Below are positions 1-30,872 of a DNA stretch of 64,000 nucleotides, in pieces. How positions within the stretch are numbered: the first letter of the stretch is position 1; each line of letters starts with the position of its first letter. The translations under genes and the position numbers were made by a program. The notes beneath the pieces were generated by a model. It was given only the letters and a program-made list of their open reading frames with translations, made no database searches and was not told the DNA's origin. This DNA is from Staphylococcus phage AH12: the sequence record OR455461.1, one strand, 5' to 3'.

Positions 1-193
1 TTTTCCAGATCCATTATCTCCAAGAAGCATTATCATATTATTTTTACTCTTACTGAAGTCTATTTCAATTTCTTTTAATCCTGTTCCAGCATATATACCT
101 ATAAAGTTAACTAACTTTAATCTTTTAATTTTCATTATCCAAAGTCACTCTCCTAGCTGAATTATAATTTTTCGTTACTATAAATTTTTAATT

Positions 194-922
194 TTATTTA
201 AAATTATCTCTCACTAAATACTTCTCAATAGTTTCTTTATCAGTTATTTCCTTAAATATTCTACCAGAATCAAATTTAAAAAATTCAATTTCTCTATTAT
301 CGAATTTATCATAGTCTTCTAAACTTTTAGTTCCAATTATAGGTGCAAAAGAAGTTTCTTTTATTAAAAATTTTAAATCAGAATACTTAGACATTAAATT
401 TAAAGTATTGAAAATTGCACTATTCATATCAGATAAATTAAACTTCATATCATTATTATTTTTAAGATTTTCATTTTTAAGATCTGAAAAGAAAATATCA
501 TAATCACTTATTGTTGGAACATACTCCATTTTTATTAAATTATCTTTGTCTAAGATATTTCCTGATATAGATCTAAAAAATGGATTATATTTATTAGGAT
601 AATCTCCAATATTAAATACTAAAGTTAAGTAGCTAACATCATTTTTATTCATTTCAAATCTCCCAGCGATATTAATATAATCAATTGATTCTTCATTTTT
701 GCTTTTTATTGAATAATATAATCTAGGAAATATTTTACTAAAATCTATGGTAAAAGATTCCCCGTTTTCATCATAACTTACATATTCATAAAAATCAGTT
801 TTTACTTGTAAACTAGCAAGCAAATAATTGAAAAATACATCATTATTTACTTGCTCTGAATTTACATTATTTATTTCAACTAATTTATCACTTAATTTTG
901 TTACAAAATATTTTTTACCCAT
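194..922 (-). CDS. hypothetical protein; member of tandem paralog family with conserved C-terminal tag (..EITDKETIEKYLVRDNFK)
   Basis: 242-aa ORF. Tight spacing to the next ORF. C-terminal motif shared with about 15 other ORFs in the window. Confidence 0.6.
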   Translation of the reverse strand: MGKKYFVTKLSDKLVEINNVNSEQVNNDVFFNYLLASLQVKTDFYEYVSYDENGESFTIDFSKIFPRLYYSIKSKNEESIDYINIAGRFEMNKNDVSYLTLVFNIGDYPNKYNPFFRSISGNILDKDNLIKMEYVPTISDYDIFFSDLKNENLKNNNDMKFNLSDMNSAIFNTLNLMSKYSDLKFLIKETSFAPIIGTKSLEDYDKFDNREIEFFKFDSGRIFKEITDKETIEKYLVRDNFK

Positions 923-938
923 ATTAGATTCCTCCTTT

Positions 939-1721
939 TTATTTAAAATTATCTCTTACTAAATATTCTTTAATAACTTTTTCATCAGTAATCTCTTCAA
1001 ATACTCCAGATATTTTATACTCGTCAAATAAATTATAGTATTCATCATCTATATCATCATTATCTCTTTTATCATTCTCCGGTATGTGCGAGAAACAACC
1101 ATCTGATACAAAGAATTCTATATTAAAATGATCTCTAATTTGTGATAAAAGTTCCAATATAGAACTATTTACTTCAACTAATATTTGGTATAAATCTTTA
1201 TTATTTCTAAAATTATTTTCTGCACTATTATTAAAATCTGATATTAAATTTTCCATACTATTTATATAAAATCTAAAAGGTATTTTTAAAGAATTGGATT
1301 CATCTAATATATTGCCAATAGCATTATTAAAAAGTATCGAATTTATACTTGAAGAGTATGGATTTTCAATTCTAACTTTTAAATAGTTCTCATTTTCTAT
1401 TGATTCGTTGAAAATAATATCAAAATCAATAATAAGTATATTCGTTGTCTTTTTATTATTAACATTATATTTGATAACTGGAAAAATATATCCAGTCGAT
1501 ATAATCCCTGACCATAAATTCTCTCCATTATCATCTTTACCAACAATCTCTTCAGAAAGTATATTTATTTCTTCATTACTTTTTACTTGTAAATTAGAAA
1601 GTAATTGAGGTAGATATAAATAATCTTCATTTATATTATATCTGTATAAGTTAGTAACTTCAAATAAATCATCTGTCATTTTACTTAAAAAATATTTTTT
1701 ATGGCTTTTATTTATACTCAT
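939..1721 (-). CDS. hypothetical protein; C-terminal-tag paralog family (..EEITDEKVIKEYLVRDNFK)
   Basis: 260-aa ORF. RBS-like AAAGGAGG upstream. Conserved 3' coding end and downstream sequence. Confidence 0.6.
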   Translation of the reverse strand: MSINKSHKKYFLSKMTDDLFEVTNLYRYNINEDYLYLPQLLSNLQVKSNEEINILSEEIVGKDDNGENLWSGIISTGYIFPVIKYNVNNKKTTNILIIDFDIIFNESIENENYLKVRIENPYSSSINSILFNNAIGNILDESNSLKIPFRFYINSMENLISDFNNSAENNFRNNKDLYQILVEVNSSILELLSQIRDHFNIEFFVSDGCFSHIPENDKRDNDDIDDEYYNLFDEYKISGVFEEITDEKVIKEYLVRDNFK

Positions 1722-1737
1722 TACATTGATCTCCTTT

Positions 1738-2481
1738 TTATTTAAAATTATTTTTCACTAAATATTCTTTAATAACTTTTTCATCTGTAACCTCTTCAAA
1801 TAATCCAGAATCATTAAGTAGAAAATTATAATCAAATATAGGAAATAATGTATCTTCTTGTTCTTCCATTTTTGTATATATTCTTGTCATAAAATATGAT
1901 AACTCTGATTTTTTAACATTTAATTTTAAATCTCCATATTCCATTAAATCCATCAGATAATTTAAAAGAGTTCTATTAAATTCTTTGACCAACAATTCTA
2001 TTTCTCCAAAATTTAAAATATAATCTTTATCATCTAGATTAACAAAATTTTCACTAGTATGTCTTATATCATCAGTTAAAATTAAAAGTTTTTTATTCAT
2101 ATTATTTTCTATTTTGTCATGAAAAGATCCCTCTGGAAAATCTTTTTTAAATACTCCTCCATCTAAAATAGAATTAAATTGTAAATTAAAATTCGTATTG
2201 TAATTTAATAAATCTCTTACATAATCTTTACTTGATATTCTAGAATTTTGTTTGATTTTAACTACTTTATCATTAAAAAGAGAATAATCTAAAAAAAGCT
2301 CAGATTGATAAATAAAGTTTCTTGGTCTATTAAGCATTTTTTCATTTTTATAAATATATTCCATTTGCATTTTAGTAAATATTTCAGTCAATATATCTCT
2401 ACTTAAATCAGTTCTATCAATATTAAAGTGAAGTATTTTTCCATCTATTTTATATCTATAATAATTATTATATTCCATCAT
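1738..2481 (-). CDS. hypothetical protein; C-terminal-tag paralog family (..EEVTDEKVIKEYLVKNNFK)
   Basis: 247-aa ORF. Start overlaps the stop of the upstream gene by 4 nt. Confidence 0.6.
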   Translation of the reverse strand: MMEYNNYYRYKIDGKILHFNIDRTDLSRDILTEIFTKMQMEYIYKNEKMLNRPRNFIYQSELFLDYSLFNDKVVKIKQNSRISSKDYVRDLLNYNTNFNLQFNSILDGGVFKKDFPEGSFHDKIENNMNKKLLILTDDIRHTSENFVNLDDKDYILNFGEIELLVKEFNRTLLNYLMDLMEYGDLKLNVKKSELSYFMTRIYTKMEEQEDTLFPIFDYNFLLNDSGLFEEVTDEKVIKEYLVKNNFK

Positions 2482-3299
2482 GAAAATCCTTTCTTGACTT
2501 TAAAATTTTTAATATCTTTTTCATCTGTTAATTCTTTGAATAAATCATTTTCATCAACATCAACTAAATCCAATATACTAATTAAATTAGGTCCTATGTT
2601 ATTACTGATATTAATAAAGAATTCTATATTATCTTCATACATATATTTAATTTCATAAAGAGTCATTAGTACACTAACATTATTTTGATATATTAAAATA
2701 AAGAAGAAATCTTTAAATTTTTCTATAAAATTCTTACTATAAGCCTCAATTGATGGTCCCATAAATAATGGATCGTGTTTAAGTGTATTTTCATATTTTA
2801 TATAATTAAAACTTTCTTCAAAAGATTCAAAGTGTACAAATGTACCTTCTAATCCTTTATTTATTCCTTCATTAACTAGACCATTATTATCCATCAAGTT
2901 ATCTGTAATATTATTAAAATATTTTTTAGATATTAAATTATCAAATTTAAAATGTAAGTTAAATTTTCCAATATCCATTTTATCAATTCCTCTAATGTTA
3001 TAATCAATGGAAAAATTACTATTAATTTTTTTAAGTGTATCACTTTTATTACGTGAATCTTTAAAATATATATCTTTATTAAATTTAATATCAGTAAATT
3101 TTATCGATTCATCATTCAATTCTTCTTTCTTCATTTTAATATCATCTATGAAATATTTAGAAAGATGTATATTACTTAATATATTTCTAAGATCTATATG
3201 TGTTAAAATATACGCAATATATTCATATCTATTAATGTAATTTTTTTTATTAATTTCAATTAATTCATCTTCCTTTTTATCTATAAAATATTTTGTCAT
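2478..3299 (-). CDS. hypothetical protein; C-terminal-tag paralog family (..KELTDEKDIKNFKVKKGFS)
   Basis: 273-aa ORF. Confidence 0.55.
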   Translation of the reverse strand: MTKYFIDKKEDELIEINKKNYINRYEYIAYILTHIDLRNILSNIHLSKYFIDDIKMKKEELNDESIKFTDIKFNKDIYFKDSRNKSDTLKKINSNFSIDYNIRGIDKMDIGKFNLHFKFDNLISKKYFNNITDNLMDNNGLVNEGINKGLEGTFVHFESFEESFNYIKYENTLKHDPLFMGPSIEAYSKNFIEKFKDFFFILIYQNNVSVLMTLYEIKYMYEDNIEFFINISNNIGPNLISILDLVDVDENDLFKELTDEKDIKNFKVKKGFS

Positions 3300-3335
3300 T
3301 ATCTATTTCATCTCCTAATTTATATCTATATTTCA

Positions 3336-4115
3336 TTATGAAAATCCTTTCTTGACTTTAAAATTTTTAATCTCTTTATCATCAGTTATTTCTCTAAAAT
3401 ATACATTTGCATCAAAATCATTTAAACTAATATACTTATCATATTCTTTTTCAAAACTAAAACCTTTTTCTTTTACCTTTTCATTAACGCTAAAATCCCA
3501 ATCCGGTGCAATAAGAAATTCAATATCTGAATGATCTTGTATCTGATCCAGTAATTCAAAGATTAATTTATTTGTTTCATTAAATATATCATATAAATCA
3601 TCTCTGAGTTCTACAGCTCTTTTTCCTTTTCGTATATGACTTTTATAGTATTTTAAAAATCGAGACATAGTTTCTTCATTAAATTTATGAGGTAAATACA
3701 TTTCACCATTATTATCAAATATACCGGATCTTTTACTAAATAATCTTTTACCTATCTCACTATTATTATATACAGGGAAAGCTCTAAAATTAATATAGTT
3801 ATCGTCTTCTTCTTTTAAACTAAAACGTATTGTAGAGTAGAAGAGAAGTTCCATTTTGTTTGTTTTACCTTTATATTTATATTTTACTGTAGGGAAAGAA
3901 TTAAAAAATAATCTAATACCAAATAAACCATCGTCATCATTATATTCTTCATGAGTTATGAAAAATTTTTTATTATACTTTAACTGCATTTCAGCGAATA
4001 ATTTGCTTAAAACTTTCCATTTAAAGTCAAAATATTTTGTTTCATTTTCATTGAAAGTTAATTCGATAAATTCTTTTTCAGATTTACTAGTGTAGTATTT
4101 GTTAATTTTTTCCAT
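3336..4115 (-). CDS. hypothetical protein; C-terminal-tag paralog family (..REITDDKEIKNFKVKKGFS)
   Basis: 259-aa ORF. Confidence 0.55.
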   Translation of the reverse strand: MEKINKYYTSKSEKEFIELTFNENETKYFDFKWKVLSKLFAEMQLKYNKKFFITHEEYNDDDGLFGIRLFFNSFPTVKYKYKGKTNKMELLFYSTIRFSLKEEDDNYINFRAFPVYNNSEIGKRLFSKRSGIFDNNGEMYLPHKFNEETMSRFLKYYKSHIRKGKRAVELRDDLYDIFNETNKLIFELLDQIQDHSDIEFLIAPDWDFSVNEKVKEKGFSFEKEYDKYISLNDFDANVYFREITDDKEIKNFKVKKGFS

Positions 4116-4141
4116 TTATTTAACTCCTTTTATTATAATAA

Positions 4142-4169
4142 TCCCAATACTAAATTAATAGTATTGGGA
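4142..4169. terminator. hairpin terminator TCCCAATAC-loop-GTATTGGGA
   Basis: Perfect 9-bp inverted repeat with flanking T/A runs. Same stem sequence recurs at 19047..19080. Confidence 0.5.
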
Positions 4170-4195
4170 TAACTTTTTAATAATATATATTTATT

Positions 4196-4597
4196 CTAAT
4201 CTTCAGAATTAGGTGATACTTGTCCATTTTCCATTTCTTCACGTTGTTCTTTAAGTCTGTCGAGAACTTCTTTTTCTTCTTTATTTTGAGTTAATTCTGG
4301 TTCAATTAATAATTCTTTTTCTTTCATATCTTCTAATATACTTAAACCTTTTTGAACTTCTGGCGATTCATTAGAAGGATTAAATCTATTGTGTTTATTA
4401 TCATAGTAATTTAATTTAACTAGGTCTGAATTAGTTTCAATAACTACTTCAGCTTCTATGAATAAAATATCATTTGGATCAGTCACACGCTTTCTATATA
4501 CTAAAGCTTTAGTATAAGAATCTTTTCTAAAACCATAATCTCTTAATAGTTGTTTAATATTTTCTTTATTACTATTTAATCTATATTCTGATAACAT
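4196..4597 (-). CDS. hypothetical protein with acidic C-terminus
   Basis: 133-aa ORF followed by the hairpin terminator at 4142..4169. Confidence 0.5.
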   Translation of the reverse strand: MLSEYRLNSNKENIKQLLRDYGFRKDSYTKALVYRKRVTDPNDILFIEAEVVIETNSDLVKLNYYDNKHNRFNPSNESPEVQKGLSILEDMKEKELLIEPELTQNKEEKEVLDRLKEQREEMENGQVSPNSED

Positions 4598-4610
4598 TAT
4601 AAATCACTCC

Positions 4611-4736
4611 TTAATTGTTTTTACTAAATTCATGAACTTCATTAAGATGCTCATGGTCTTGATAACTAAATTTAAATTCATATAGTTTCTTTTCAAATCT
4701 TTTTCTAGTTAATAATTCGTATAATCTTTTTAACAT
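4611..4736 (-). CDS. small hypothetical protein (41 aa, MLKRLYELLTRKRFEKK...)
   Basis: Short ORF not in the supplied track. Preceded by AAGGAGATG plus 8 nt then ATG. Confidence 0.3.
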   Translation of the reverse strand: MLKRLYELLTRKRFEKKLYEFKFSYQDHEHLNEVHEFSKNN

Positions 4737-4760
4737 ATCTAATTCATCTCCTTATTAATT

Positions 4761-5171
4761 TTAAAATGACGCATCTATTATTAAATAAAAATCATGCTTA
4801 TTGCTTTCTAAATAGTATCTATTTTGAAATATTTCTAACATTAATTTGTAGTATTTTGTTAGATCATTATCAAAATTATCTTCTTTTAATTCTTTTTTCA
4901 TTAATTCTTTTAAATTTGATTCTGAAATTACTTGAACATCATAACCTTCATCATCTTTAAAAATAGTTGAATTTTCACTTAAAACTTTAAATAATTCATG
5001 TGGTTTATATAATTCTAATTCAAATAAGTGATTTTTCTTATTTATATATCTTTTATTTTTAATATACCAATCTAAATTTCTTTGATGACTTTTATTTATT
5101 CCATATATACTAAGTTCCATACCCATAAATAATACATCTCCTATATAATAAATACCCATAATATATTGCAT
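4761..5171 (-). CDS. hypothetical protein
   Basis: 136-aa ORF. Exact start uncertain, several in-frame Met codons. Confidence 0.45.
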   Translation of the reverse strand: MQYIMGIYYIGDVLFMGMELSIYGINKSHQRNLDWYIKNKRYINKKNHLFELELYKPHELFKVLSENSTIFKDDEGYDVQVISESNLKELMKKELKEDNFDNDLTKYYKLMLEIFQNRYYLESNKHDFYLIIDASF

Positions 5172-5194
5172 TAATATATTATGGGTAAAATAAT

Positions 5195-5980
5195 TTAAAA
5201 TTCTGCTTTTTGATAGATGTTACCAAATTCATCTTTAACTATTTCATCATTACCTTCAATATCTTCAAAGATAAGATCTCTAGTCATAGCAAATAATTCT
5301 GGATATTCATCTTCAAGTTCATCTTCTTCAATGATATTCATTTCTTTATCGGCAATTACTAACTCATATTCATCTAAATTATCACCTAATACAAAGAATT
5401 TCAATGTGTCTTTATATACTTTTAAAATAGATGATAAGTCTTGATGTTTAAGTTCATTAACCTCTTTTTGTAATTCTTCTCTTTTTTCAATTTCTTTTTC
5501 ATCTTCATCTATATTTTTATTTAGATTTTCTAAAGTTTGATCTAATTTATCTTTCAAATCTTCTTCTTCTTCAGTAGTATCTTCTTCATTTTCTGTCATA
5601 CTGTTCAATATATCTTTATTAGACATAGTATTAAGCTGACTAAGTACATTTTTAGCAAGAACTTTATAATTATCTTCAGATTCATCATCTTCAACCATTT
5701 TCTGAGCTTTCATAGTTAAGTCAATAATATCTTTTTTAACATTTTTCATTTGCATAATAGTGTCTTTAATTTCTTTTTCTACACTAATAATGTTAGCTTC
5801 CATATTAGATACAAATGTATGTTTAGGATATTTCAGATTCTTAGTCAGATCTCTAATTCTTTCTTCTAATTGAATTTCTTTACGTTCCATTTTAGATTTA
5901 AATCCAACTAGCATTTTATATTCTTCCATCATATCATTAATTTGTGAAATTAAATCAATTTCATTATTTTCATTAGACAT
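5195..5980 (-). CDS. hypothetical acidic coiled-coil protein
   Basis: 261-aa ORF, Glu/Lys/Asp-rich heptad-like sequence. Confidence 0.55.
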   Translation of the reverse strand: MSNENNEIDLISQINDMMEEYKMLVGFKSKMERKEIQLEERIRDLTKNLKYPKHTFVSNMEANIISVEKEIKDTIMQMKNVKKDIIDLTMKAQKMVEDDESEDNYKVLAKNVLSQLNTMSNKDILNSMTENEEDTTEEEEDLKDKLDQTLENLNKNIDEDEKEIEKREELQKEVNELKHQDLSSILKVYKDTLKFFVLGDNLDEYELVIADKEMNIIEEDELEDEYPELFAMTRDLIFEDIEGNDEIVKDEFGNIYQKAEF

Positions 5981-6026
5981 TTATTTAATCACTTCTTTCA
6001 TATATTATAAAAGTAAGTTAATTAAA

Positions 6027-6713
6027 TTACTTAAAGTTTTTATTTACTAAATAGTTTTTAATTTCTTTCTCATCTTTAACTTCAATAAATTTCTTATTGA
6101 AATTTAATATATTATAATCATCTAATGTCCCATCTTTATATTTAGAGAAATCTTCTAGTTTTATTTTATTCTTATTTTCTTCAAATTCTTCTAGAATTTC
6201 TTCATTAATTATATATAAATCAATATCATCATTTTCAATTTCTTTTAATATCGCTTCAAACATTTCACTAAAGAAAATCTGATCGTCTTCTTTATGAGTG
6301 TATTCAAATTTAGGATAATTTTCATATTCAAATAATTTCCGGTTATAAAATAAGTTTCTTACTTTTGTGAAATTTCCAACGCTTTCAAATTTATTAAGAG
6401 TTGCAGCAGTAGGTACAAGTTTAATATCAATTATAGCTTCATGATTAAGCTTCAACCGAATAATCAATTCTATTTCTTTTATTCTATACATGATATTATT
6501 GTGATTAATTACAATGAACTTTCTAGTCATTCCTTGATGCCTTAATATATAGTCTCCTTCTGTATATTTCTCATGCTTCACTAAGTATAGATTATCATCT
6601 ACATAGTTAATGAATGAAAAAGCTCTAATATATTTTTCTATCCCATCTTTTGCTTCTACATATTTTCCATTATCTTTATTTTTGTATAATTTGAAATCAT
6701 ACATATCATTCAA
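6027..6713 (-). CDS. hypothetical protein; C-terminal-tag paralog family (..EVKDEKEIKNYLVNKNFK)
   Basis: 228-aa ORF. Confidence 0.55.
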   Translation of the reverse strand: MNDMYDFKLYKNKDNGKYVEAKDGIEKYIRAFSFINYVDDNLYLVKHEKYTEGDYILRHQGMTRKFIVINHNNIMYRIKEIELIIRLKLNHEAIIDIKLVPTAATLNKFESVGNFTKVRNLFYNRKLFEYENYPKFEYTHKEDDQIFFSEMFEAILKEIENDDIDLYIINEEILEEFEENKNKIKLEDFSKYKDGTLDDYNILNFNKKFIEVKDEKEIKNYLVNKNFK

Positions 6714-7323
6714 ACCCTTTCTTGACTAAGTAATTTTTAATTTCCTTTTCATCCGTTACTTCTTCAAATAGTTCATCTATATTACTTAAATCATAGATTT
6801 CTTTTATATTATCTTTACTTATTTTGTAATCATGAATATTATCTTTATCATTTAATGAAAATACATTGAATATAGAACCATTTTTATTAAATATATCTCT
6901 AGTCAAGTATTCTTTAGCTTTGTCTATTAAAGTTTTTCCTTCAGTATATATTTCTCCATCATTAAAATAAAATTTACTTTCACCTTCTTCAGATACAAAA
7001 GGTCCTATTTCACAGTGAACTTCTTTTTTTGAAAACTTTGGAATATTCAATACAAAACTAAATTCATATTGACCGTCATTTTTATCTACGAAAAGATCAA
7101 ATTCATTTACATAAAAAAGATTATTCATATCATAACCGAATCTTAGAATTAGACCATCCATAGAATTTATCCACAGACGAACATTTTCAACATCATAACC
7201 AGTACAGCCCGGATGTTTGAAAAATTGATCAAAAGATATATCAAATAATTCTTTTCTAGAAAGACTCTTTTCATTAATGAAACTATATTCTAGGATGTCA
7301 GACACATATAATGTTTTATTCAT
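6706..7323 (-). CDS. hypothetical protein; C-terminal-tag paralog family (..EEVTDEKEIKNYLVKKGFE)
   Basis: 205-aa ORF. Confidence 0.55.
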   Translation of the reverse strand: MNKTLYVSDILEYSFINEKSLSRKELFDISFDQFFKHPGCTGYDVENVRLWINSMDGLILRFGYDMNNLFYVNEFDLFVDKNDGQYEFSFVLNIPKFSKKEVHCEIGPFVSEEGESKFYFNDGEIYTEGKTLIDKAKEYLTRDIFNKNGSIFNVFSLNDKDNIHDYKISKDNIKEIYDLSNIDELFEEVTDEKEIKNYLVKKGFE

Positions 7324-7341
7324 TTTAATTACCTTCTTTCA

Positions 7342-7887
7342 TCATTTAAAATTTTTCTCTACTAAATATTTTTTAATTTCTTTTTCATCTTTAATTTCAT
7401 CAAAGCATTCTAATATACCGCTAATATCTCTTTCAATCCCATCAATAATTATTTTTAATTCAATTCTATCATTCTTAATAATATAATCAGAAGCATTAAC
7501 AACGGATTGAATTAAATCTCCTTTATCAGTTTCATAATTATCAAGAAGAATATATGTGTATAATCTAGTATTAACATTGTATTCTCTTAATTTAAATAGA
7601 TCTAATGGTAATCTAATTCTAGAATATACCAATATGCTATTATTGTCTCCATGCGTTATTGATAAAGGACCTTTTAAATAACCATCTATTTTCATGTATA
7701 CATTTGATAAATAATCATAAATACTAATATCATCAGAATCACTTCTTATATAAACATTAGTAAATAATATTAATAAAGATAAACCTAACACACGATCATT
7801 TTCTATATTATTATGATTAAATTGTATTATTTTATGATGTTTACTTTTTCTTAAAAATCTAGAGTTTTTTAAATCCATATATTTCAC
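7342..7887 (-). CDS. hypothetical protein; C-terminal-tag paralog family (..DEIKDEKEIKKYLVEKNFK)
   Basis: 181-aa ORF. Confidence 0.55.
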   Translation of the reverse strand: MKYMDLKNSRFLRKSKHHKIIQFNHNNIENDRVLGLSLLILFTNVYIRSDSDDISIYDYLSNVYMKIDGYLKGPLSITHGDNNSILVYSRIRLPLDLFKLREYNVNTRLYTYILLDNYETDKGDLIQSVVNASDYIIKNDRIELKIIIDGIERDISGILECFDEIKDEKEIKKYLVEKNFK

Positions 7888-7893
7888 TTCTCT

Positions 7894-8535
7894 CTACTTA
7901 AAATTTTCTTTAACTAAGTATTGTTTAATTTCTTTTTCACTTTCTAATTTTTCTAAGACCTTGTATATTTCATCGAGTGTATATTCTTCTAAAATTAAAT
8001 CTTTCTTAAATTCTCGACTTGTCATAAAATCAATATCATCCTCTACAGAATCAACTGTATATATTATTAAATTTGTTTCTTTTTTACTACTAAAGAGATC
8101 AATTATATTTGAAATTAATTCATGTTCCAAATTATCTCTATTTTTAATTTGAATTTTAGCTGTATATGAAAATACTTGACTACTAATTGAACTTTTAAAA
8201 GGTCCTATATTCTTGTATCCATTTTCATTTTTATCTAATAATGAAAATACAAAATATAATTCAAAATAATTATTATTGCACGTGTCTGTTATATCTATAT
8301 AAGAATTCTTAGTTCTGTAATAAGTATTTTTATCCCTTATCAAAATACTATTGGTTTTTAATGAAAATAAACCAATTTCATCTATTTTTTTCTTAACGTT
8401 ATTAAAATTAAATAATTCTTTGAATAGATTAACATTTAATTCATCTTTAGTAACATCTTTATTAGTTACTATTATTTGCCCTCTACTATCAACTTTATAG
8501 AATTCATGATTATTTATATATTCATTATTATCCAT
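7894..8535 (-). CDS. hypothetical protein; C-terminal-tag paralog family (..ESEKEIKQYLVKENFK)
   Basis: 213-aa ORF. Confidence 0.55.
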   Translation of the reverse strand: MDNNEYINNHEFYKVDSRGQIIVTNKDVTKDELNVNLFKELFNFNNVKKKIDEIGLFSLKTNSILIRDKNTYYRTKNSYIDITDTCNNNYFELYFVFSLLDKNENGYKNIGPFKSSISSQVFSYTAKIQIKNRDNLEHELISNIIDLFSSKKETNLIIYTVDSVEDDIDFMTSREFKKDLILEEYTLDEIYKVLEKLESEKEIKQYLVKENFK

Positions 8536-8569
8536 ATTAACTTCATCTCCTCTATTTAAAATATTATTA

Positions 8570-8600
8570 GAGATAATGAATTATTATAATCCATTATCTC
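8570..8600 (-). terminator. hairpin GAGATAATG..CATTATCTC
   Basis: 9-bp inverted repeat in intergenic gap. Confidence 0.35.
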
Positions 8601-8629
8601 ATTTTTATAATATATATTTAATACATATT

Positions 8630-9301
8630 TCACCTAAATCCTTCTTTAACTAAGTAATTCTTGAATTCTTTATCAGTAGCAGTTCTAAATAAATCTTTAT
8701 TGTGTAAATTAATATCTTTTAAACTATAATATGATCCATCAATTAAAAACTGTAGGTCTTCATATTTATTCAATTCACTTATCATCTTGATGAATTGTTT
8801 TTGAAACTTCTCAAGTGATAAGTGAAATTTAGGACATCTTTCACTAATACTATTCAAAGCAACGCCTTCATTTTTGGTTAGTTTAATTGTATTAAGTTTA
8901 CTATTTATACTTGTACCCATCTTCATCATATTATACTCATACAACATTTCATCTTTTAGATAACTATTATCTTTCTCTTTACTTATTAATTTTAATTCAG
9001 TTTTTACAAATGATATTCCAGCAAAACTAGTTGATCCTGAATCCATATTTTGATAATAAGACAACTTCATATTCTTATAATCATTAAACCCTCTTAATTT
9101 CAGTTTACATTCAACTGTAAATTGCAATACATTTTCATAATCAGGATTAGCGTTATCAGTTAATAATTTTATCATATTGATAGTATCTACTCTTTCAATA
9201 TAATCTCTATCATTATCATATCTATCTTTATTTATTTTCATGAAACGATTATCTTCCAAATCTTTATTTATTATATATAAATCAAAATCATAACCTTCCA
9301 T
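8630..9301 (-). CDS. hypothetical protein; C-terminal-tag paralog family (..TDKEFKNYLVKEGFR)
   Basis: ORF 8630..9397 trimmed to the Met (MEGYDFD) that follows AAGGAGG. This removes the overlap with the upstream gene. Confidence 0.5.
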   Translation of the reverse strand: MEGYDFDLYIINKDLEDNRFMKINKDRYDNDRDYIERVDTINMIKLLTDNANPDYENVLQFTVECKLKLRGFNDYKNMKLSYYQNMDSGSTSFAGISFVKTELKLISKEKDNSYLKDEMLYEYNMMKMGTSINSKLNTIKLTKNEGVALNSISERCPKFHLSLEKFQKQFIKMISELNKYEDLQFLIDGSYYSLKDINLHNKDLFRTATDKEFKNYLVKEGFR

Positions 9302-9314
9302 TAACAATTCCTCC

Positions 9315-9800
9315 TTATTTAAAATGATTTCTAACTTTAAAATCTTTAACTTCTTTACAATCTTCTGAGATAATTTCAAATATATCTTCATTATCAAAAT
9401 TGAATTTTTCTAATGGAATATTATAATATTTCATATTTATATCTATCGTATCACATATTCTTTTATAAAATAAATAATAAAGATCAACTGAAGAGTCTGA
9501 TATGACAAGATTTTGATTTGTTAAATTTATATTTTTAGGTATAAAAGGGGCACTATTAAAGTCCCAATTAATATGTGTAGCTAAATTATGATTAGTAAAA
9601 TCGTAAATTAAGAAAAAATCTAGTTTTATATTACCTTCTTCTTCATCATATAATTCAATCTTTTTACCATCAGATTTATAAAAAGAAAAATTTTCTTTTT
9701 TAAATTCATTATTGAATACATAATAGAAAGCATCGTCTTTTCTATGAATATCATTAACTTCATATATTTCATTATTTACTTTATCTTTGTAATATATCAT
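9315..9800 (-). CDS. hypothetical protein; tandem duplicate of 9818..10297, short version of family tag (..VKDFKVRNHFK)
   Basis: 161-aa ORF. Its first ~30 aa and the underlying DNA are nearly identical to the neighbour. Confidence 0.55.
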   Translation of the reverse strand: MIYYKDKVNNEIYEVNDIHRKDDAFYYVFNNEFKKENFSFYKSDGKKIELYDEEEGNIKLDFFLIYDFTNHNLATHINWDFNSAPFIPKNINLTNQNLVISDSSVDLYYLFYKRICDTIDINMKYYNIPLEKFNFDNEDIFEIISEDCKEVKDFKVRNHFK

Positions 9801-9817
9801 TATCTATTTCAGCTCCA

Positions 9818-10297
9818 TTATTTAAATGTATTTCTAACTTTAAAATCTTTTACTTCTTGACTATTTTCATCCAATATTTCAAATATATCTGTATTACTAA
9901 ATTTAAAATCTTTTAATTTGACATAGTACTTTGATAATTTTTGATCTATCTCACATATATTTTTATATATTAAATAATAGAGATCCTCAGCAGAATCACT
10001 TGAAATAAAATTTTGACTCATTAAATTAAGTTGATGGCCCATTAAAGGTACATCTTTATTCCATGAAGGAATTAATGTCGTTTCATAATTAATAAAATTA
10101 TAACGAATATCAAATCTATATTTTAAAAATCCATACTCTTCATCTATAAATTCTACTATTTTGCTACTAGAAAAATACATATCCTCAAATGTTGGTAAAA
10201 ATTCGTTTCCAAATACATAATAGAATGCATCATCACTTCTATGAATATCATTAACTTCATATATTTCGTTATTTACTTTATCTTTGTAATATATCAT
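9818..10297 (-). CDS. hypothetical protein; tandem duplicate of 9315..9800 (..VKDFKVRNTFK)
   Basis: 159-aa ORF. Confidence 0.55.
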   Translation of the reverse strand: MIYYKDKVNNEIYEVNDIHRSDDAFYYVFGNEFLPTFEDMYFSSSKIVEFIDEEYGFLKYRFDIRYNFINYETTLIPSWNKDVPLMGHQLNLMSQNFISSDSAEDLYYLIYKNICEIDQKLSKYYVKLKDFKFSNTDIFEILDENSQEVKDFKVRNTFK

Positions 10298-10311
10298 CTA
10301 TTTACCCTTCC

Positions 10312-11022
10312 TTATTTAAAATTTTCTTTAATTAAATATTTCTTAATTTCTTTTTCATCAGTTATTTCTTCAGATATAGAATACAGATAATTTTTAATAT
10401 ATTCCATAAAAGGTATAAACGCTCCATCTATATTAATTGACATATCTTTTAATATATAGTGAATCAGACTGTCTAAAGACTTATATTCATTATCTTCTAT
10501 ACTCTCTAAATATTCTTTTTTAAAATCTACTCTAAAAGATATATCTTCATCAATTAGCATTATTCTTTTAATTGAGTATTTCTCACTGTCACAATTATCT
10601 AATACATTTTTTACCTTTTGAGGGTTTTTTATTTTTAAAACAATTTGAAATATTCTTTCATTATCAATATTATCATAAAAACAAACAATTGAAGCCTTTA
10701 TTTTATCAGAATCATTACCCTTAATTACCATATTTTTATCTTTTCCAGTTAGATTTTTAAGATTCATAATAATATCTGAGTAAATATAAAAATGGAAATT
10801 CATCTGCATATTGTTTACTAGAAAACTACTATCAAGAAATTCAATATTCTTTTGATTTTTATTTGTTATATGTTCCATAGCTTTATATAAAAATCTACCA
10901 TTATCAATTTCATTATTATTTAAAGAAAATTTTTGATTAGTTATTGTATTATTGTATACTTTTATATTATTCATTTTATCCACCTCAATTTTATAATATA
11001 TATTTAAATAAGCATTTTGCAT
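10312..11022 (-). CDS. hypothetical protein; C-terminal-tag paralog family (..EEITDEKEIKKYLIKENFK)
   Basis: 236-aa ORF. Confidence 0.55.
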   Translation of the reverse strand: MQNAYLNIYYKIEVDKMNNIKVYNNTITNQKFSLNNNEIDNGRFLYKAMEHITNKNQKNIEFLDSSFLVNNMQMNFHFYIYSDIIMNLKNLTGKDKNMVIKGNDSDKIKASIVCFYDNIDNERIFQIVLKIKNPQKVKNVLDNCDSEKYSIKRIMLIDEDISFRVDFKKEYLESIEDNEYKSLDSLIHYILKDMSINIDGAFIPFMEYIKNYLYSISEEITDEKEIKKYLIKENFK

Positions 11023-11079
11023 AAAAGCAATATAATAAGAGTAACGATCTATATTAGACCGTTACTCTGAATTTTTAAA

Positions 11080-13246
11080 TTATTCTTTAGTTAAAGAATA
11101 TAAAGCTTGTACCATATATTTATGATAATTAGACTATATCTTATGATATTTAAATCATTTCCATATTTAGTCGTTGAACAACTTTTATTAAGTTGATGCT
11201 GATTAGTTTTGTTTTTCCAGCAATTAATGAAATTTATTGAGAGCATACAAACTTACTCTCATTACCAACTCCACGTATACTATTTCCTGTGTAGTTTAAG
11301 TAATTAGTTTTCTTATTAATAAGTTTATCAGCTTCTTTATTTGCCTCTACAGACCATAAAGAGCGTATTGAAATCATATCCATTTTATATACATGTATTT
11401 ACATATAATTAGACTATATCTTCTTTAGTAATATATTTAGTCGTTGAACAACTTTTATTAAGTTGATGCTGATTATCTTATAGATTTTCCAGCAATTAAT
11501 ATTATTTAATGATGGTAATATGAAATTTTGCCATCAAAGTCAGCCGTAGTATTAACTTCATATAAATTTTTTATGAAGACTAGACTATATCAAACACTTT
11601 TAATTAAGTGTAATTATATTTAGTCGTTGAACAACTTTTATTAAGTTGATGCTGGTTAGATTTGACATTCCAGCAATTAATAATTTTTTGACATTATATC
11701 GCTATAATGAAAGGTCATTAAAATAGCCAAGTGCTTGAGCATATGAATTGTGTATGATTGCAGTATCTAAGAAAATATCTTCATCAATAGGATATTCTCT
11801 TACTACTTTAGGGTAATCTTTTAATACTATATCATCTAAAACTATTTCTGGAATAGTATCAACAGTAGTTAATATTTTAATTTTAGCAGGGGCTACGTTC
11901 AAGAAATTTTCGCATTTATTATATTTATATAATACTTATATAAATTAGACTATATTATATACTATTTAATAGTACCATTGCATTTAGTCGTTGAACAATT
12001 ATATTTAATTGATGCTGATTAACTTTATTAATAGTATTTCAGCAATTAACAGTGTTTATCGACTTAAATCACTTTAAGAAGCGACCATTTTATTAATCGG
12101 ATATCTTGAATACATAACATGCTTATCTTCTACTATTTCAGTTGCAGCGATATAAAGTAAATCAATTACAGTAAAATCTCTACCTAAAGTATTTTCAAAT
12201 AATTTAACTTTATGACGTTTACCTTCTCTATCATTTACATATATAGGACTAAATCTTTCATTAGGATCTTTAATAAAAAATTCTAGCATATTCTTAATTT
12301 CTTTATCATCAAATTGTTCATAAACTTCCTCTAATGAAAGCTCTTTATCTCCTTCACCTGTAGCTGTTTGGAAAGCATCTTTATGAAGTTCAATAAAATC
12401 AATTATATACTTATTAAAGAATGGTAAGAATAATGTAACTAATTGAGTTAATGGTACACCTAACTCACCAAACTCTATCTGCATTTCATCCCATTTATTC
12501 GAATTAATTTTAGGTGAAGAAATAACTGCACGAGTACTATTATCTACTGTTTTACCCAATATACGTTTTTGCATAAAACCAGTTTTACCTGATAATTCTC
12601 CTGAAGTAAATTTCTGATATATTTCAAATAATGTATTTTGTATATTATATTTAGTACTGTTAGCTATAAATCCGAATGAATTAAAACTAATAGCATCTAC
12701 AGAACGTATAATAGAAGAATACATATTATTAACTTCTTCAGTATCTTGAATTTCTCCTGAAGTTTCATTAGGATTAAAGTCTCTATAAAATGCAGGTATT
12801 ACTAACCATTTATCTACAAATATTTTTTGTTTATCCGTATTCTTAATCATATCAATTTTTTCAGATCTAATACGAGAATCATTCTTTCTAAATTTTAAAT
12901 CATCAAATACTTCATATAAGAAATTCAGTCCAGTGTCTCCATCTTCTGAAGGAACTAATTGACCTTTTTCTACTTTAAAATACTCTGAACCCTGAATACA
13001 TAGTTCAATATTTTTATCTAAATCTTTTAATGCTTTATAAGCTACCGGATTAAGGTATTTATCCTTTAAATTAATCCAACCTAAATTATTTTTTCTTTCA
13101 GGAGTACCTATCAAACCAAATATGTCATATGAAAATAAACCATCATCTTTTGGTAGTATACCCGAATCAAAAAATACAGGGTTGGTTACTTCTTTAGCAT
13201 TAGTGTCAGTTATGACTTGTTCAATATCTATCATATCTACTTTCAT
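11080..13246 (-). CDS. multisubunit RNA polymerase beta-prime-like subunit, N-terminal/catalytic-loop part. Split gene: join(13246..12096, 11912..11717, 11544..11530, 11380..11255, 11112..11080), about 506 aa
   Basis: Exon A contains GKTGFMQKRILGKTVDNSTRAVI, matching the beta-prime [23 protein letters not shown] motif. Predicted spliced product reads ..GYFN-ADFDG-DMISIRSLWSVEANKEAD.., matching ..[26 protein letters not shown]... Exon E gives ..VQALYSLTKE, matching VVLGLYYMTR. Exon borders were derived from P1/IGS pairing and reading frame. Confidence 0.7.
11113..11254 (-). ncRNA. ultra-compact group I intron R4 (142 nt) in the RNAP beta-prime-like gene
   Basis: P1 is exon GAGAGU paired to IGS GCUCUC with terminal U.G, 10-nt loop. 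Same core. Ends ..AUAUAUG before GUACAAGCU (V Q A). The first intron nucleotides encode KFVCSQ* when unspliced. Confidence 0.7.
11381..11529 (-). ncRNA. ultra-compact group I intron R3 (149 nt) in the RNAP beta-prime-like gene
   Basis: Same core. Hairpin UGAUGG(C)-15 nt loop-CCAUCA(A) forms P1. Ends ..AUAUAAAAUG immediately before GAUAUGAUU (D M I). The 5' splice site appears to follow C of GGC, facing A in the IGS. Confidence 0.6.
11545..11716 (-). ncRNA. ultra-compact group I intron R2 (172 nt) in the RNAP beta-prime-like gene
   Basis: Same conserved core. 5' exon ends ..UUUUAAU (Asn). GNRA hairpin CAUUAUA-GCGA-UAUAAUG lies in the P1 loop. Tentative IGS is GUCAAAA. The terminal G sits just before GCUGACUUUGAUGGC. 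Exact 3' splice site is tentative. Confidence 0.55.
11913..12095 (-). ncRNA. ultra-compact group I intron R1 (183 nt) in the RNAP beta-prime-like gene
   Basis: P/Q/R/S cores present (UUAAUUGCUG, AAUCAGCAUC, GUUCAACGACUAAAU, GAUAUAGUCUA). P1 is exon CGAU paired to IGS GUCG with U.G at the splice site. GNRA-capped hairpin CUUAAA-GUGA-UUUAAG. Ends ..AAUAAAUG. The reading frame is restored (AU + C = Ile). Confidence 0.7.
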
Positions 13247-15824: not shown

Positions 15825-16319
15825 CTACATAAAAGTCTTTTTAGTTTCTATTTTCATAAATTCTTTTTTATCTATCTCTTCAAAAATAATATAAATATCA
15901 TTTAAGTAAATATAAAAATCATCATCTTTGTCATTATATTGAAAATTTAAACGAAGATAATTGTTATCATTATCTTCGTCAATAGATGGACATTTAATTA
16001 AACCATGTTTATAAGGCATGTTAGTCTCATACTCTATACTATTTTTATTTATATTTATTTCTTTATGAATATCCAAACTAATAGCGTTATATACTTCTAG
16101 TATTTCTCCATCTTTTTTATTGTATACTTTACATCTTATAAAAGGTAATATTTCATCACTTAAAATACTATATAACATCATAAAAATATCATCATTTTTA
16201 CCAACTTTAAATACAATATCTTCTTTCATTTCCATATAATATTTAAAAACAGACGATAATTTCTTTTCAGTTTCAAATAGTTCTTGAAACTTTTTAGGTT
16301 TAAATAAAAAGTACCTCAT
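15825..16319 (-). CDS. hypothetical protein
   Basis: 164-aa ORF. Confidence 0.45.
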   Translation of the reverse strand: MRYFLFKPKKFQELFETEKKLSSVFKYYMEMKEDIVFKVGKNDDIFMMLYSILSDEILPFIRCKVYNKKDGEILEVYNAISLDIHKEININKNSIEYETNMPYKHGLIKCPSIDEDNDNNYLRLNFQYNDKDDDFYIYLNDIYIIFEEIDKKEFMKIETKKTFM

Positions 16320-19085: not shown

Positions 19086-19742
19086 TTATTTAAAATTTTT
19101 ATTTATTTTATATTTTTTAACTTCACTTTCAGAAAGCTCTTCAATTATATTATTTTTTCTGCTGTTAAATACATTTTCAATCTCTTGTAAATAAAATATA
19201 TTACTATCTTCTATTTCCCCATTTTTAAATAAAGATAGATTAAATGAATACATATCTCCTAAAATGGTTTTAATTTTGTTTAGAACAGAATAAACTGCGT
19301 TTTCAAAATTATCTTTATCTGTACGAACCATAACAATTTCATCCGAATATTCTATATGAAATTCTTCATTTAAATCTATTAAAGCTTTTTTAGATGCATA
19401 TAAATCATAATATACACCTAAATCTAATTTCAATTCAATATCAGAATCATTCTTAATAAATAATAAAGAAATAAAATTATTATTATCAATATCGCTTGAA
19501 AATACTAACGATACGCCATTTTCATCTAAATTATTTGAAATAAAATCTTTTATTAAAATTTTAAAATATAAGAAAAAACTGATTTCAGTATTCATTTTAA
19601 ATACATTATTTTTTCTTAAATTTACATCTTTAGAAAAATTGAAATTCAAATAATTAATTTTTAATCTATAATAAAAAGAATCATCTTTGAATCTCAATAG
19701 ATTTGTGTAATGGTTTATTAACTCATCTTTAAATTTCTTCAT
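19086..19742 (-). CDS. hypothetical protein; outlying member of C-terminal-tag family (..SESEVKKYKINKNFK)
   Basis: 218-aa ORF. Confidence 0.5.
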   Translation of the reverse strand: MKKFKDELINHYTNLLRFKDDSFYYRLKINYLNFNFSKDVNLRKNNVFKMNTEISFFLYFKILIKDFISNNLDENGVSLVFSSDIDNNNFISLLFIKNDSDIELKLDLGVYYDLYASKKALIDLNEEFHIEYSDEIVMVRTDKDNFENAVYSVLNKIKTILGDMYSFNLSLFKNGEIEDSNIFYLQEIENVFNSRKNNIIEELSESEVKKYKINKNFK

Positions 19743-19829: not shown

Positions 19830-20144
19830 TTAATTTCTAATATATGAAATTACAAATGAAATTACAAATAAAATACTCAATGCAAGAATTACTGTCAATC
19901 CAAATGTTACTATAAAGTCTAAGACAGGACTACCCAAATGGATATCTGGAAAGTTAAATATTGATTCGTTAGGAATATTATCGTCTGGTGTATGTTGTGG
20001 CATATTTGCAGGATTAGTTGGACTAGTGGGATTAGCTGGATGTAAAGGATTATTTGGACTAGCTGGGCTAGCGGGATTACTTGGATTTAAAGGGCTAGCG
20101 GGATTACTTGGATTTAAAGGGCTAGCGGGATTACTTGGATTCAT
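19830..20144 (-). CDS. small membrane-anchored protein with N-terminal Pro/Ser/Asn repeats (NPSNPASPL x3) and a C-terminal TM helix
   Basis: 104-aa ORF. 27-bp tandem DNA repeats encode the peptide repeat. Hydrophobic C-terminus VLDFIVTFGLTVILALSILFVISFVI. Confidence 0.5.
   Translation of the reverse strand: MNPSNPASPLNPSNPASPLNPSNPASPASPNNPLHPANPTSPTNPANMPQHTPDDNIPNESIFNFPDIHLGSPVLDFIVTFGLTVILALSILFVISFVISYIRN
20040..20130. repeat. 27-bp tandem repeat (about 3 copies) inside CDS 19830..20144
   Basis: TTAAAGGGCTAGCGGGATTACTTGGAT repeated head-to-tail. Encodes the PSNPASPLN peptide repeats. Confidence 0.7.
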
Positions 20145-20203: not shown

Positions 20204-20926
20204 TCATTCCAATTCTAATCTTTCATATCCTAAATAACCTTTAGCTTCTTGTATATTATTATACTTATTTATTAAACTAACTAAACTATGTCTTAATCTA
20301 TAATATACAGTACCTTTACATTTACTAATATTCTCATCTAAAAACATAATCCATTCGTATAATACTTTTTCATCAATTTCTTTAATTAAATTCCTATGAA
20401 TTAGATATTCTATTACAGATTGTAAATTAGGATTAAATATAATTCTATTTAATTTATTCTGATTAAATTCATCTTTAAAATTGACATATATTACATCTGA
20501 AATATACTTGGAATCGTCTTCTTTAATTTTAGTTCCTATATTAATTAATCGATTAATAAATAAATATTTATCATTAATAATCATGGTATCGGAATCTACC
20601 ATTTTAACTAATCTCTTAATTGATGCTTTTCTTAATAGACCGGTTAAAAATTTATCCTCTTTTCCATTAATTCTTATACCTTCAGATTCAAAATTGTCTA
20701 TGATATAATTTATAAATTCTTCATATTTGTTTAACTCATTTTTAGTAAATAATGTTTTATCTAAGTTATCTTTAATGTAACAACTTAAAATATTACTTTC
20801 CAGTAATAATTGAAAAGTAATAATATTCTTTGAAGATGGATCATTTAAATTAATTGTCATTAATTGATCTATACGTATACTTTCTCTATTCTTTAACTTC
20901 ACTTCTTTATTCTCTTTTACTAACAT
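20204..20926 (-). CDS. hypothetical protein
   Basis: 240-aa ORF. Confidence 0.5.
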   Translation of the reverse strand: MLVKENKEVKLKNRESIRIDQLMTINLNDPSSKNIITFQLLLESNILSCYIKDNLDKTLFTKNELNKYEEFINYIIDNFESEGIRINGKEDKFLTGLLRKASIKRLVKMVDSDTMIINDKYLFINRLINIGTKIKEDDSKYISDVIYVNFKDEFNQNKLNRIIFNPNLQSVIEYLIHRNLIKEIDEKVLYEWIMFLDENISKCKGTVYYRLRHSLVSLINKYNNIQEAKGYLGYERLELE

Positions 20927-22220: not shown

Positions 22221-22250
22221 AGTGTAATATCAAATTAATGATATTACACT
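22221..22250 (-). terminator. hairpin AGTGTAATATCA..TGATATTACACT
   Basis: 12-bp inverted repeat in intergenic gap. Confidence 0.4.
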
Positions 22251-22289
22251 CTAATTATTACATTTTTATAATATATATTTGAATCACAT

Positions 22290-26546: not shown

Positions 26547-26576
26547 CTCCTAATATTTATAAATAAAAAAATAAAT

Positions 26577-26607
26577 AAGATAATGGAGAACTTAATCTCC
26601 ATTATCT
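26577..26607 (-). terminator. rho-independent terminator
   Basis: Stem AGATAATGGAGA..TCTCCATTATCT followed by a U-run on the minus strand. Confidence 0.5.
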
Positions 26608-26615
26608 GTATTATA

Positions 26616-28163: not shown

Positions 28164-28350
28164 ATCTAAATCTCTCCTCTTAATTAAAAATTTTTATTTT
28201 ATATTTGAGAATTAAGTCTAATAATAACTCATTCTCAATAAAATAATATATATTTAAAATATTATTTGAAAATTCTAATTTTTTATCTATATCGATAAAT
28301 GCTTTAACAACCATTTATTATAACAATAAAATGAACGGAAGTGAAATTAA

Positions 28351-30644: not shown

Positions 30645-30872
30645 TTAACTCATATTTTTTCTAACTAAATAATCTTTTATTTCTTTAACATCATATTTTT
30701 TAGCTACTTCGTAAATAAGCTCTCTAAGTTCTTTTACTTCTTTTTCTAGAGAATATTCTTCATTATCTTTCAATATATCTTTTTCTACTTGTTTAGATGC
30801 TCTAAGTTGTATTCTTGAATAAAGTTCATCCATAGATGAACCGTTATCATTAAAATTAATATATGAACTCAT
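30645..30872 (-). CDS. small protein with family-like C-terminal tail (..KEIKDYLVRKNMS)
   Basis: 75-aa ORF. Confidence 0.45.
   Translation of the reverse strand: MSSYINFNDNGSSMDELYSRIQLRASKQVEKDILKDNEEYSLEKEVKELRELIYEVAKKYDVKEIKDYLVRKNMS

Follow-up and report, generated by a model that had tools for sequence, protein, structure and literature searches.

Divergent, predicted early proteins of Staphylococcus jumbo phages share a conserved C-terminal module

Why would a row of neighbouring phage genes with very different products all end in the same short peptide? The question is raised by a stretch of 64,000 nucleotides from Staphylococcus phage AH12 (sequence record OR455461.1; hereafter the window), in which 13 tandem minus-strand open reading frames (ORFs; 194-10974) and one dispersed ORF (19086-19742) share a C-terminal tail of ~22 amino acids. 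The original prediction, made from the letters of the window, had described a constant tag on variable bodies at ORFs 194, 939, 1738, 2478, 3336, 6027, 6706, 7342, 7894, 8630, 9315, 9818 and 10312, with an outlier at 19086, and had favoured a signal for virion incorporation or ejection. All of these motif endings were recovered, and an ORF listing combined with a regular expression gave no further ORF of at least 50 amino acids with the strict tail pattern in the 64 kb. Family comparisons were made with 86 members from seven phages (the window, PB50, Machias, S6, SA1, MarsHill and LY01). Tentatively, we favour a lineage-specific family of early effectors, acting in host takeover or anti-defence and carrying a common C-terminal interaction module, over virion cargo.

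The tail is an undescribed, clade-restricted module that is fixed at the exact C-terminus. Its consensus among the 86 members is F(-20)-x-E-[IVL]-T-D-E-K-E-[IV]-K-x-[YF]-[LK]-[VI]-[KR]-x-[NG]-F-x. The phenylalanine at -2 is invariant (86/86 members, seven phages), the last residue varies (K, R, S or E), and almost all proteins terminate exactly one residue past the phenylalanine. A hidden Markov model (HMM) of the last 22 residues matched the members at E = 1e-7 to 1e-12, always with the match ending at the last or second-last residue, and the best match among shuffled control proteins had E = 0.04.

In an exhaustive hmmsearch against 1.84 billion representative proteins, the tail profile gave 12 matches at E<=1e-3, all of them C-terminal and all in family orthologs. 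Similarly, tblastn of the tail consensus against 50,697 phage records matched nine Staphylococcus jumbo phages only, even at E<=10. The profile search that had been proposed as a check thus confined the tail to family orthologs, and both searches argue against a generic ending of AT-rich phage ORFs, an explanation that the original prediction had itself raised. Nothing similar to the tail was found in Pfam, PHROGs, NCBIfam or the PDB sequences, in agreement with the earlier remark that the tag is not a described family. The family as a whole had no significant profile or fold match to a curated family (Pfam, PHROGs, NCBIfam) or a solved structure, and even with a threshold of E<=10 a family-wide profile search returned no more than four close orthologs. 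The idea that the tail mimics a host protein was considered and rejected, the exhaustive protein search being empty outside the family.

Selection on the tail acts mainly at the level of the peptide, DNA-level conservation being secondary, and it is purifying selection on the peptide that maintains the module. Conserved residues use several codons: all four are found for Val -6, and those for Tyr, Glu, Lys, Thr and Gly vary as well. Codon heterozygosity at conserved tail positions is 0.26, compared to 0.30 expected from body codon usage, and unusually uniform codons are limited to Ile -11 (ATT) and Phe -2 (TTT). In ortholog pairs, the nonsynonymous divergence (dN) of the tail is far below that of the body, at a similar synonymous divergence (dS), and in most clusters of related members the tail is the most conserved segment.

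It had been suggested that the 3' coding end and a downstream spacer are conserved as DNA. The quoted spacer, TTATTTAAAATTATCTCTTACTAAATATTC, is in fact the reverse complement of the coding end (E-Y-L-V-R-D-N-F-K-stop), and the true spacers between members have the ribosome-binding site (RBS; Shine-Dalgarno) alone in common. Codon choice at conserved residues is near the neutral expectation, and DNA-level conservation is an unlikely main driver; one cassette swap does have its junction in the tail codons, as described below.

Bodies behave differently. BLAST of the 86 tail-trimmed members gave 16 clusters (c0 and so on), and comparison of the rather shallow body profiles by hhalign and HMM linked only c0-c3, c4-c5-c12 and c6-c7. 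The high N-terminal divergence noted originally is therefore real, with most clusters unlinkable even by profile comparison, and tails stay 60-94% identical while the bodies have diverged past profile detection. An N-terminal hairpin-like motif, [YF]-[YF]-x-x-K...[ILF]-[IV]-E-[IV]-N, is present in many clusters. In a leave-one-cluster-out test, c0, c1, c3 and c4, which share this motif though they are unrelated by BLAST, beat all 185 background ORFs, and c11 beat all but one; clusters c5, c6, c7, c9 and c10 are without the motif and retain the tail. Judging from these sequence comparisons, most members are probably very divergent paralogs, and some bodies may have gained the tail through recombination.

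An AlphaFold2 (AF2) model was obtained for 939-1721, with a predicted local distance difference test (pLDDT) of 66.6 and a predicted template modelling score (pTM) of 0.67. It places an alpha/beta body (hairpin, helix, beta-meander, helices) ahead of a low-confidence linker (residues 211-238), followed by a tail made of a strand (241-244) and a helix (247-258). The tail pLDDT of 68-77 is near that of the body and above that of the linker, which in the family is variable in length and often acidic. The model of 9315 (c1) was unusable because its pLDDT was 45.7, and only the order of its secondary-structure elements recalls the 939-1721 model. Foldseek gave weak full-length matches to proteins of family size at 15-16% identity, the assignment of these to other clusters being by length only.

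Two further ideas about the bodies were discarded. The Pfam/PHROG match of ORF 6027 to 'superinfection exclusion GP17' scored 17 bits, below the cut-off of 25, and was not seen for any paralog. The family median isoelectric point of 5.3 against 5.1 for the rest of the phage proteome is uninformative for DNA mimicry, an idea that had come from charge.

When would these proteins be made? The early promoter of AR9 that is read by the injected virion RNA polymerase (vRNAP) has been defined experimentally as AAATATATATTAT-(6N)-G (PMC5312081), and Korn et al. found the early-promoter core upstream of 29 MarsHill genes. In the window we identified seven perfect AAATATATATTAT-N6-G sites (13/13 plus the +1 G), where ~0.05 would be expected by chance according to our estimate; the 9-mer promoter core alone is not enriched. 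All seven sites are intergenic and correctly oriented, and three of them head sub-arrays of the family on the minus strand: 10993..11005 for operon 1, at a position conserved in relatives, 8607..8619 for operon 2, ahead of a stable 5' hairpin (-14.8 kcal/mol), and 4180..4192 for operon 3, followed by a 5' hairpin at 4141-4170 (-16.9 kcal/mol). Another (22268-22280, minus strand) belongs to the operon that ends with the dispersed member. Hairpins of -15 to -17 kcal/mol come after the promoters at 4192, 8619 and 22280, and the promoter arrangement is retained in 6/6 relatives (PB50, Machias, S6, SA1, MarsHill and LY01).

Having the same promoter consensus as the early genes of AR9/PBS1 (PMC5312081), the family is predicted to be transcribed immediately after infection, in three operons, by the injected vRNAP. 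The late-like motif AACA-N6-T[AG] was found neither within 120 nt upstream of any member nor in the array gaps, which is weak evidence because this late consensus is unverified in the Staphylococcus clade. A promoter hidden in the tail was also considered and rejected, the early promoters being intergenic and the tail containing neither consensus. Stem-loops of -9 to -17 kcal/mol lie right at the +1 of early promoters at 4141-4192, 8570-8619, 22221-22280 and 28226-28255 (minus strand), and these promoter-plus-hairpin composites recall the promoter-early stem-loop (PeSL) elements of T4-type phages.

The window is very AT-rich (GC content 0.20-0.34), and its first 12 kb matched nine Staphylococcus jumbo phages only in a search of the phage collection. 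Closest are Machias and PB50, at ~91% identity across 66-74% of the query, and by sequence the window belongs with the Machias/PB50 group of AR9/PBS1-like Staphylococcus jumbo phages. The array is flanked on one side by the gene for the N-terminal part of vRNAP beta' and on the other by a gene for a 911-aa SbcC-like ATPase, labelled 'virion associated protein' in some records. Since window positions 1-135 (minus strand) encode the N-terminus of this ATPase, the complete array lies inside the window. The neighbourhood from vRNAP beta' to the SbcC-like gene is shared with AR9/PBS1, as is an embedded gene similar to AR9 gp141. AR9 and Listeria phage LPJP1 keep a gene resembling 5195-5980 at the syntenic locus, but neither the tail family nor an analogue was found there, the family being an expansion particular to the Staphylococcus clade.

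The family evolves rapidly. The comparison of array size among related phages, another check proposed at the outset, gave 8-15 members by tail HMM at each syntenic locus of PB50, Machias, S6, SA1, MarsHill and LY01. The dN/dS ratio is 0.27-0.85 for bodies versus 0.02-0.18 for neighbouring core genes; relative to PB50 the values are 0.35-0.82 and 0.02-0.18, and the embedded genes 4196-4597 and 5195-5980 are also constrained. Cassettes have been gained or lost between phages that are ~91% identical, and the array is a mosaic, with cassettes 194 and 939 resembling PB50 and missing in Machias, and cassettes 1738, 7342 and 7894 resembling Machias and missing in PB50. ORF 939-1721 is 93% identical to its S6 ortholog (L003 19015-19797) with a dS of 0.07, versus 0.6-0.9 for core genes compared with S6, a sign that this single gene was recently exchanged between otherwise diverged lineages. 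PB50 (L001 19193-20053) and Machias (L002 18127-18987) have an extra c0-type member of 271-286 amino acids, located between the position of the 194 ortholog and the SbcC-like gene, that the window does not contain.

Where do such exchanges join? PB50 has a single c8 cassette in place of c7 and c10 of the window. Upstream, homology extends through promoter, 5' hairpin and RBS and is lost across the bodies; downstream, it resumes at the codons for D-E-K-E-I-K, ~50 nt ahead of the stop, with ~96% identity against a background of ~40%. The shuffling of cassettes that had been anticipated from the conserved 3' ends is therefore real in this case, with a junction inside the tail-coding segment. Being the only sequence common to all cassettes, this segment doubled, in this one exchange, as a homologous-recombination junction.

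By analogy, PeSL-mediated modular shuffling is the closest evolutionary parallel to the array. In the hyperplastic regions of T4-like phages, short conserved flanks of unrelated ORFs serve as exchange points (PMC2839356, PMC4122927), and insertions, deletions and replacements distinguish near-identical phages, as they do here. Composites of early promoter and stem-loop flank the variable ORFs in both systems, the promoter here being that of vRNAP rather than sigma-70, and the c8 versus c7+c10 swap has its junctions in short conserved flanks both upstream and downstream. In the T4-like phages, however, exchange takes place at a regulatory cassette outside the coding sequence, between ORFs without any shared feature, whereas here one of the junctions lies in coding DNA, which provides all cassettes with a common protein tail and is under peptide-level selection.

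The signal for virion incorporation or ejection that had been favoured at first fits these data poorly. Early vRNAP promoters head the sub-arrays in seven phages, no late-like motif lies upstream, and the ~18 members in phage DC4 (UFVDC4_00016-18, 25-27, 29-34 and 37-42) are missing among the 15 virion proteins identified by liquid chromatography-mass spectrometry (LC-MS), a weak point because just 15 proteins were detected in this shallow proteome. Taken together, promoters, missing late-like motif and DC4 data disfavour virion cargo. The alternatives that had also been put forward, a recognition site for a protease, chaperone or partner, may still hold. Loading of the proteins into the capsid by the tail and ejection with the DNA, in the manner of the T4 capsid targeting sequence, we consider quite improbable. 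The idea draws on a constant peptide with variable bodies in a plastic locus, as in the T4 internal proteins (PMC3012670), on the packaging of proteins such as vRNAP by AR9-like phages, on array neighbours annotated as virion-associated, and on a loose likeness of the tail T-D-E to S/A/G-x-E sites. The S/A/G-x-E sites are those of the prohead proteases of phiKZ-like phages. Yet the residue at P3 of the putative cleavage site varies (T, K, E, A or S), the neighbour labelled 'virion associated protein' is an SbcC-like ATPase, every sub-array has a perfect early promoter, and the AR9 virion protein genes tested (g121, g153) gave late transcripts only (PMC5312081).

Even so, the T4 internal-protein locus is, as an analogy, the functionally closest known system. 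The internal proteins IPI, IPII and IPIII and diverse T-even relatives carry the capsid targeting sequence, combining diverse bodies, one short conserved terminal peptide and a plastic locus that varies from one near relative to the next; IPI*, at least, acts as an anti-defence effector (PMC3012670). Variable bodies and a hyperplastic locus are found here too (16 clusters, 8-15 copies, cassette turnover). The T4 peptide, however, is N-terminal, ~10 amino acids long and directs encapsidation into the scaffolding core (PMC3012670), whereas the family tail of ~22 amino acids is at the extreme C-terminus in 86/86 members. The tail is also predicted to be structured, early-promoter operons replace late expression at the sequence level, and no member was detected in the (shallowly sampled) virions. 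In T4, the targeting peptide is removed by the prohead protease and the internal protein genes are late.

How, then, should the tail be read? Our tentative preference is for a shared interaction module, because the protein ends one residue past the invariant phenylalanine, because the linker ahead of the tail is variable and of low confidence, and because the tail survives on bodies diverged beyond recognition, including the clusters without the N-terminal motif. These same features count against the strongest competitor, which we nevertheless hold to be rather unlikely: the tail would be the best-conserved element of one divergent paralogous fold, kept for folding and not separable as a tag. 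In detail, the C-terminal strand and helix would pack on the N-terminal hairpin and close the domain, and the family could still consist of early effectors, without a common partner. A tail pLDDT that resembles the body and exceeds the linker, the second conserved element at the N-terminus of several clusters, the conservation of both ends around a variable middle in c1, and the weak full-length Foldseek similarities all agree with such a fold. But c5, c6, c7, c9 and c10 keep the tail without the N-terminal motif, a terminus placed so precisely after the phenylalanine would be unusual for a mere core helix, the linker preceding the tail changes in length, and 60-94% identity of the tail on bodies beyond profile detection is not easily explained by folding.

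The remaining explanations (degron, packaging signal and purely DNA-level conservation) are less likely than either of these. The chance is slim that the tail is a C-terminal degron or timer through which a protease of the host or the phage, such as ClpXP or ClpCP, clears the early effectors in step. Strict C-terminal placement with an invariant penultimate phenylalanine, the predicted co-expression of members as early genes and the flexible linker that the model places ahead of the tail would suit a degron; a variable last residue and a length of 22 conserved residues with secondary structure, long for a degron, would not, and the tail is unlike known Clp degrons such as ssrA. The ssrA degron ends in ...LAA. 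We regard as very improbable that the 3' ends act in cis, as repeats for recombination or regulation, with conservation mainly of the DNA and the peptide incidental, even with one swap breakpoint in tail codons, uniform codons at two positions and the overlap of some tails with the RBS or start of the next gene. Paralogous tails have only 63% nucleotide identity, and the longest exact run that they share has a median length of 10 nt. The codons for Val, Tyr, Glu and Lys change freely while the amino acids are fixed, tail dS is similar to body dS, and the motif is never found out of reading frame or away from a C-terminus.

Several points also weigh against the interaction module that we prefer. 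The roles as handle and effector are drawn from architecture, timing and evolutionary pattern, and common homology of all bodies is undemonstrated, with profile links limited to the three groups named above. The decent tail pLDDT, a model value, may simply reflect packing of the tail against the body, as one element of the fold. Early-promoter assignment depends on identity to the AR9 consensus, the late consensus used is unverified in the Staphylococcus clade, so that additional late expression is possible, and the sole virion proteome, that of DC4, is only 15 proteins deep. Finally, PB50 lacks the c5 cassette, and the junction of this insertion or deletion is a stop/start boundary outside the tail; shuffling can therefore also proceed by a route other than the tail repeat.

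With an interaction module of this kind, the locus would represent a fast-diversifying multigene family of the Staphylococcus jumbo phage lineage, switched on as three operons right after infection by the injected vRNAP. Each protein would have a divergent alpha/beta body, a variable and often acidic linker, and a fixed module of ~22 amino acids, in which the short beta-strand F-x-E-I precedes the capped, amphipathic helix T-D-E-K-E-I-K-x-Y-L-V-K, with [N/G]-F-x as the free C-terminal end. We infer that the module may be a protein-protein interaction handle that connects many, probably target-binding, bodies to one partner in the cell or to each other, and that the bodies could be early effectors of host takeover or anti-defence. 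The tail-coding segment, together with the promoter and 5'-hairpin elements, would allow the exchange of whole bodies between related phages.

A more specific version of this idea, which is improbable as it stands and draws on analogy, is an 'adaptor library', where each body captures a different host protein, for example a defence component, and the tail plugs all of them into one hub. The free [N/G]-F-x end would dock to a host Clp-type unfoldase/protease or a phage partner, for neutralisation or degradation, and new specificities would come from body swaps between the constant promoter/5' untranslated region and tail junctions. SspB has a C-terminal ClpX-binding motif, and the poxvirus ankyrin (ANK)/PRANC (F-box-like) proteins form host-range multigene families of variable copy number. 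Such adaptors combine a variable substrate-binding body, a flexible linker and a short conserved C-terminal hub-docking motif, as might be the case here; they have no sequence similarity to the family, and the likeness seen is limited to the architecture of body, linker and terminal motif. If true, the adaptor library would be the bacterial-virus counterpart of PRANC- or SspB-type logic.

What is new here is the protein family itself, the overall arrangement being akin, by analogy, to the known T4 internal-protein and PeSL systems. About 10 kb of each ~260-275 kb clade genome (~4%) is taken up by an undescribed family of predicted early genes. Its rapidly evolving proteins, changing copy number and exchange of cassettes are classic marks of an arms race, and yet it keeps one strictly conserved C-terminal peptide. 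A single bait, either the tail peptide (for example FEEITDEKEIKNYLVKNNFK) or a tail-tagged reporter, could reveal a shared partner and its pathway. Staphylococcus jumbo phages are considered for therapy of S. aureus infection and transduce plasmids, and what their variable early genes target matters both for host range and for the way in which bacterial defence systems are withstood. In addition, the locus neatly illustrates a coding repeat that is protein module and recombination junction at once.

The members of the array, all on the minus strand and listed here from the operon 1 promoter onwards, include four ORFs with corrected starts (10312-10974, 8630-9301, 7342-7878 and 6027-6704). The first gene of operon 1 is 10312..10974 (c2; 220 amino acids from MNNIKVY; tail HMM E=1.6e-10), with a start backed by P0002 and the Machias ortholog. 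It is followed by 9818..10297 (c1, short type, 159 amino acids; E=1e-8), a paralog of 9315..9800 (c1, 161 amino acids), which has an invariant N-terminal stretch of 33 amino acids, a variable middle and a conserved tail. Next is 8630..9301 (c4, 223 amino acids from the MEGYDF start), detected by the tail HMM. Operon 2 starts with 7894..8535 (c7), a cassette present in Machias and not in PB50, and 7342..7878 (c10) is the member whose tail-coding end is the recombination junction with the c8 cassette of PB50. The tail HMM also detects 6706..7323 (c6) and 6027..6704 (c11). The first gene of operon 3 is 3336..4115 (c0), and the stop of 2478..3299 (c3) overlaps the start of the next gene (ATGA), 1738..2481 (c5), again a cassette in Machias and not in PB50. 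The array closes with 939..1721 (c0; tail HMM, and the member modelled by AF2) and 194..922 (c0), its last gene.

In tails that end K-K-G-F-S/E followed by TGA, the codons AAG AAA GGA/GGG give a Shine-Dalgarno-like AAAGG for the next gene (2478-2481, 6704-6713). At these sites the stop and the next start overlap (ATGA) or adjoin, an arrangement suggestive of translational coupling inside the operons.

The dispersed member, 19086..19742 (c9, minus strand; tail HMM E=3e-7), is the last gene of a separate early operon (promoter 22268-22280) and is followed by a terminator hairpin. Of the outliers originally listed as having the same ending, it alone is secure. ORF 30645..30872 (minus strand, 75 amino acids, ending VKEIKDYLVRKNMS) is a marginal relative (E=1.2e-4) with the helix part of the tail only and Met instead of Phe at -2. 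ORF 31460 gave no match at the reporting threshold of E<=10, its resemblance being limited to the last ~5 residues. It is one of three tandem coiled-coil ORFs of ~92 amino acids (30878-31159, 31164-31439 and 31460-31738, minus strand) that resemble a separate, small set of paralogs, with endings (..RDNLK, ..KENFK) like the last few tail residues only.

Inside the array, four conserved non-family core genes (4196-4597, 4611-4736, 4761-5126 and 5195-5980, minus strand) are all under strong purifying selection, and 5195-5980 is like AR9 gp141 in position, size and termini. A domain search with these embedded genes and the neighbouring early genes gave no match. A terminator-like hairpin (11038..11068, minus strand) divides the array from the upstream vRNAP beta' gene. 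This N-terminal beta' gene (11234-13246) and the DNA polymerase catalytic gene (16337-18626), both on the minus strand, are each split into several ORFs; in Machias, MarsHill and AR9, the annotation of these genes includes introns or insertions of homing endonucleases, in a pattern that varies between relatives.

Other minus-strand genes near the early promoters were also noted. ORF 19830-20144, in the same early operon as 19086, encodes 104 amino acids. Three copies of a Pro/Asn/Ser-rich repeat (NPSNPASPL) lie in its N-terminal part and a hydrophobic segment lies in its C-terminal part, and judging from this sequence the product is probably a small membrane protein. The last 22 amino acids of 20204-20926 are 100% identical to S6, versus 56% for the body. 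Near early promoters, 20946-22190 and 22290-24512 are 33-34% identical to their S6 orthologs (dN/dS 0.36-0.68). A loose echo of the family K-x-N-F-K is seen in 15825-16319 and 20946, which end K-K-T-F-[MI], and in 22290, which ends R-N-I-F-L. The region 24603-28163 encodes a 647-aa protein with a metalloprotease-like HExxH motif (HEAMHVAHGH) and a long acidic low-complexity middle and, adjoining it, a 515-aa ATPase, annotated in relatives as ATP-binding protein or AAA family ATPase, which has its own early promoter (28243-28255) and whose DC4 ortholog is present in the virion LC-MS list.

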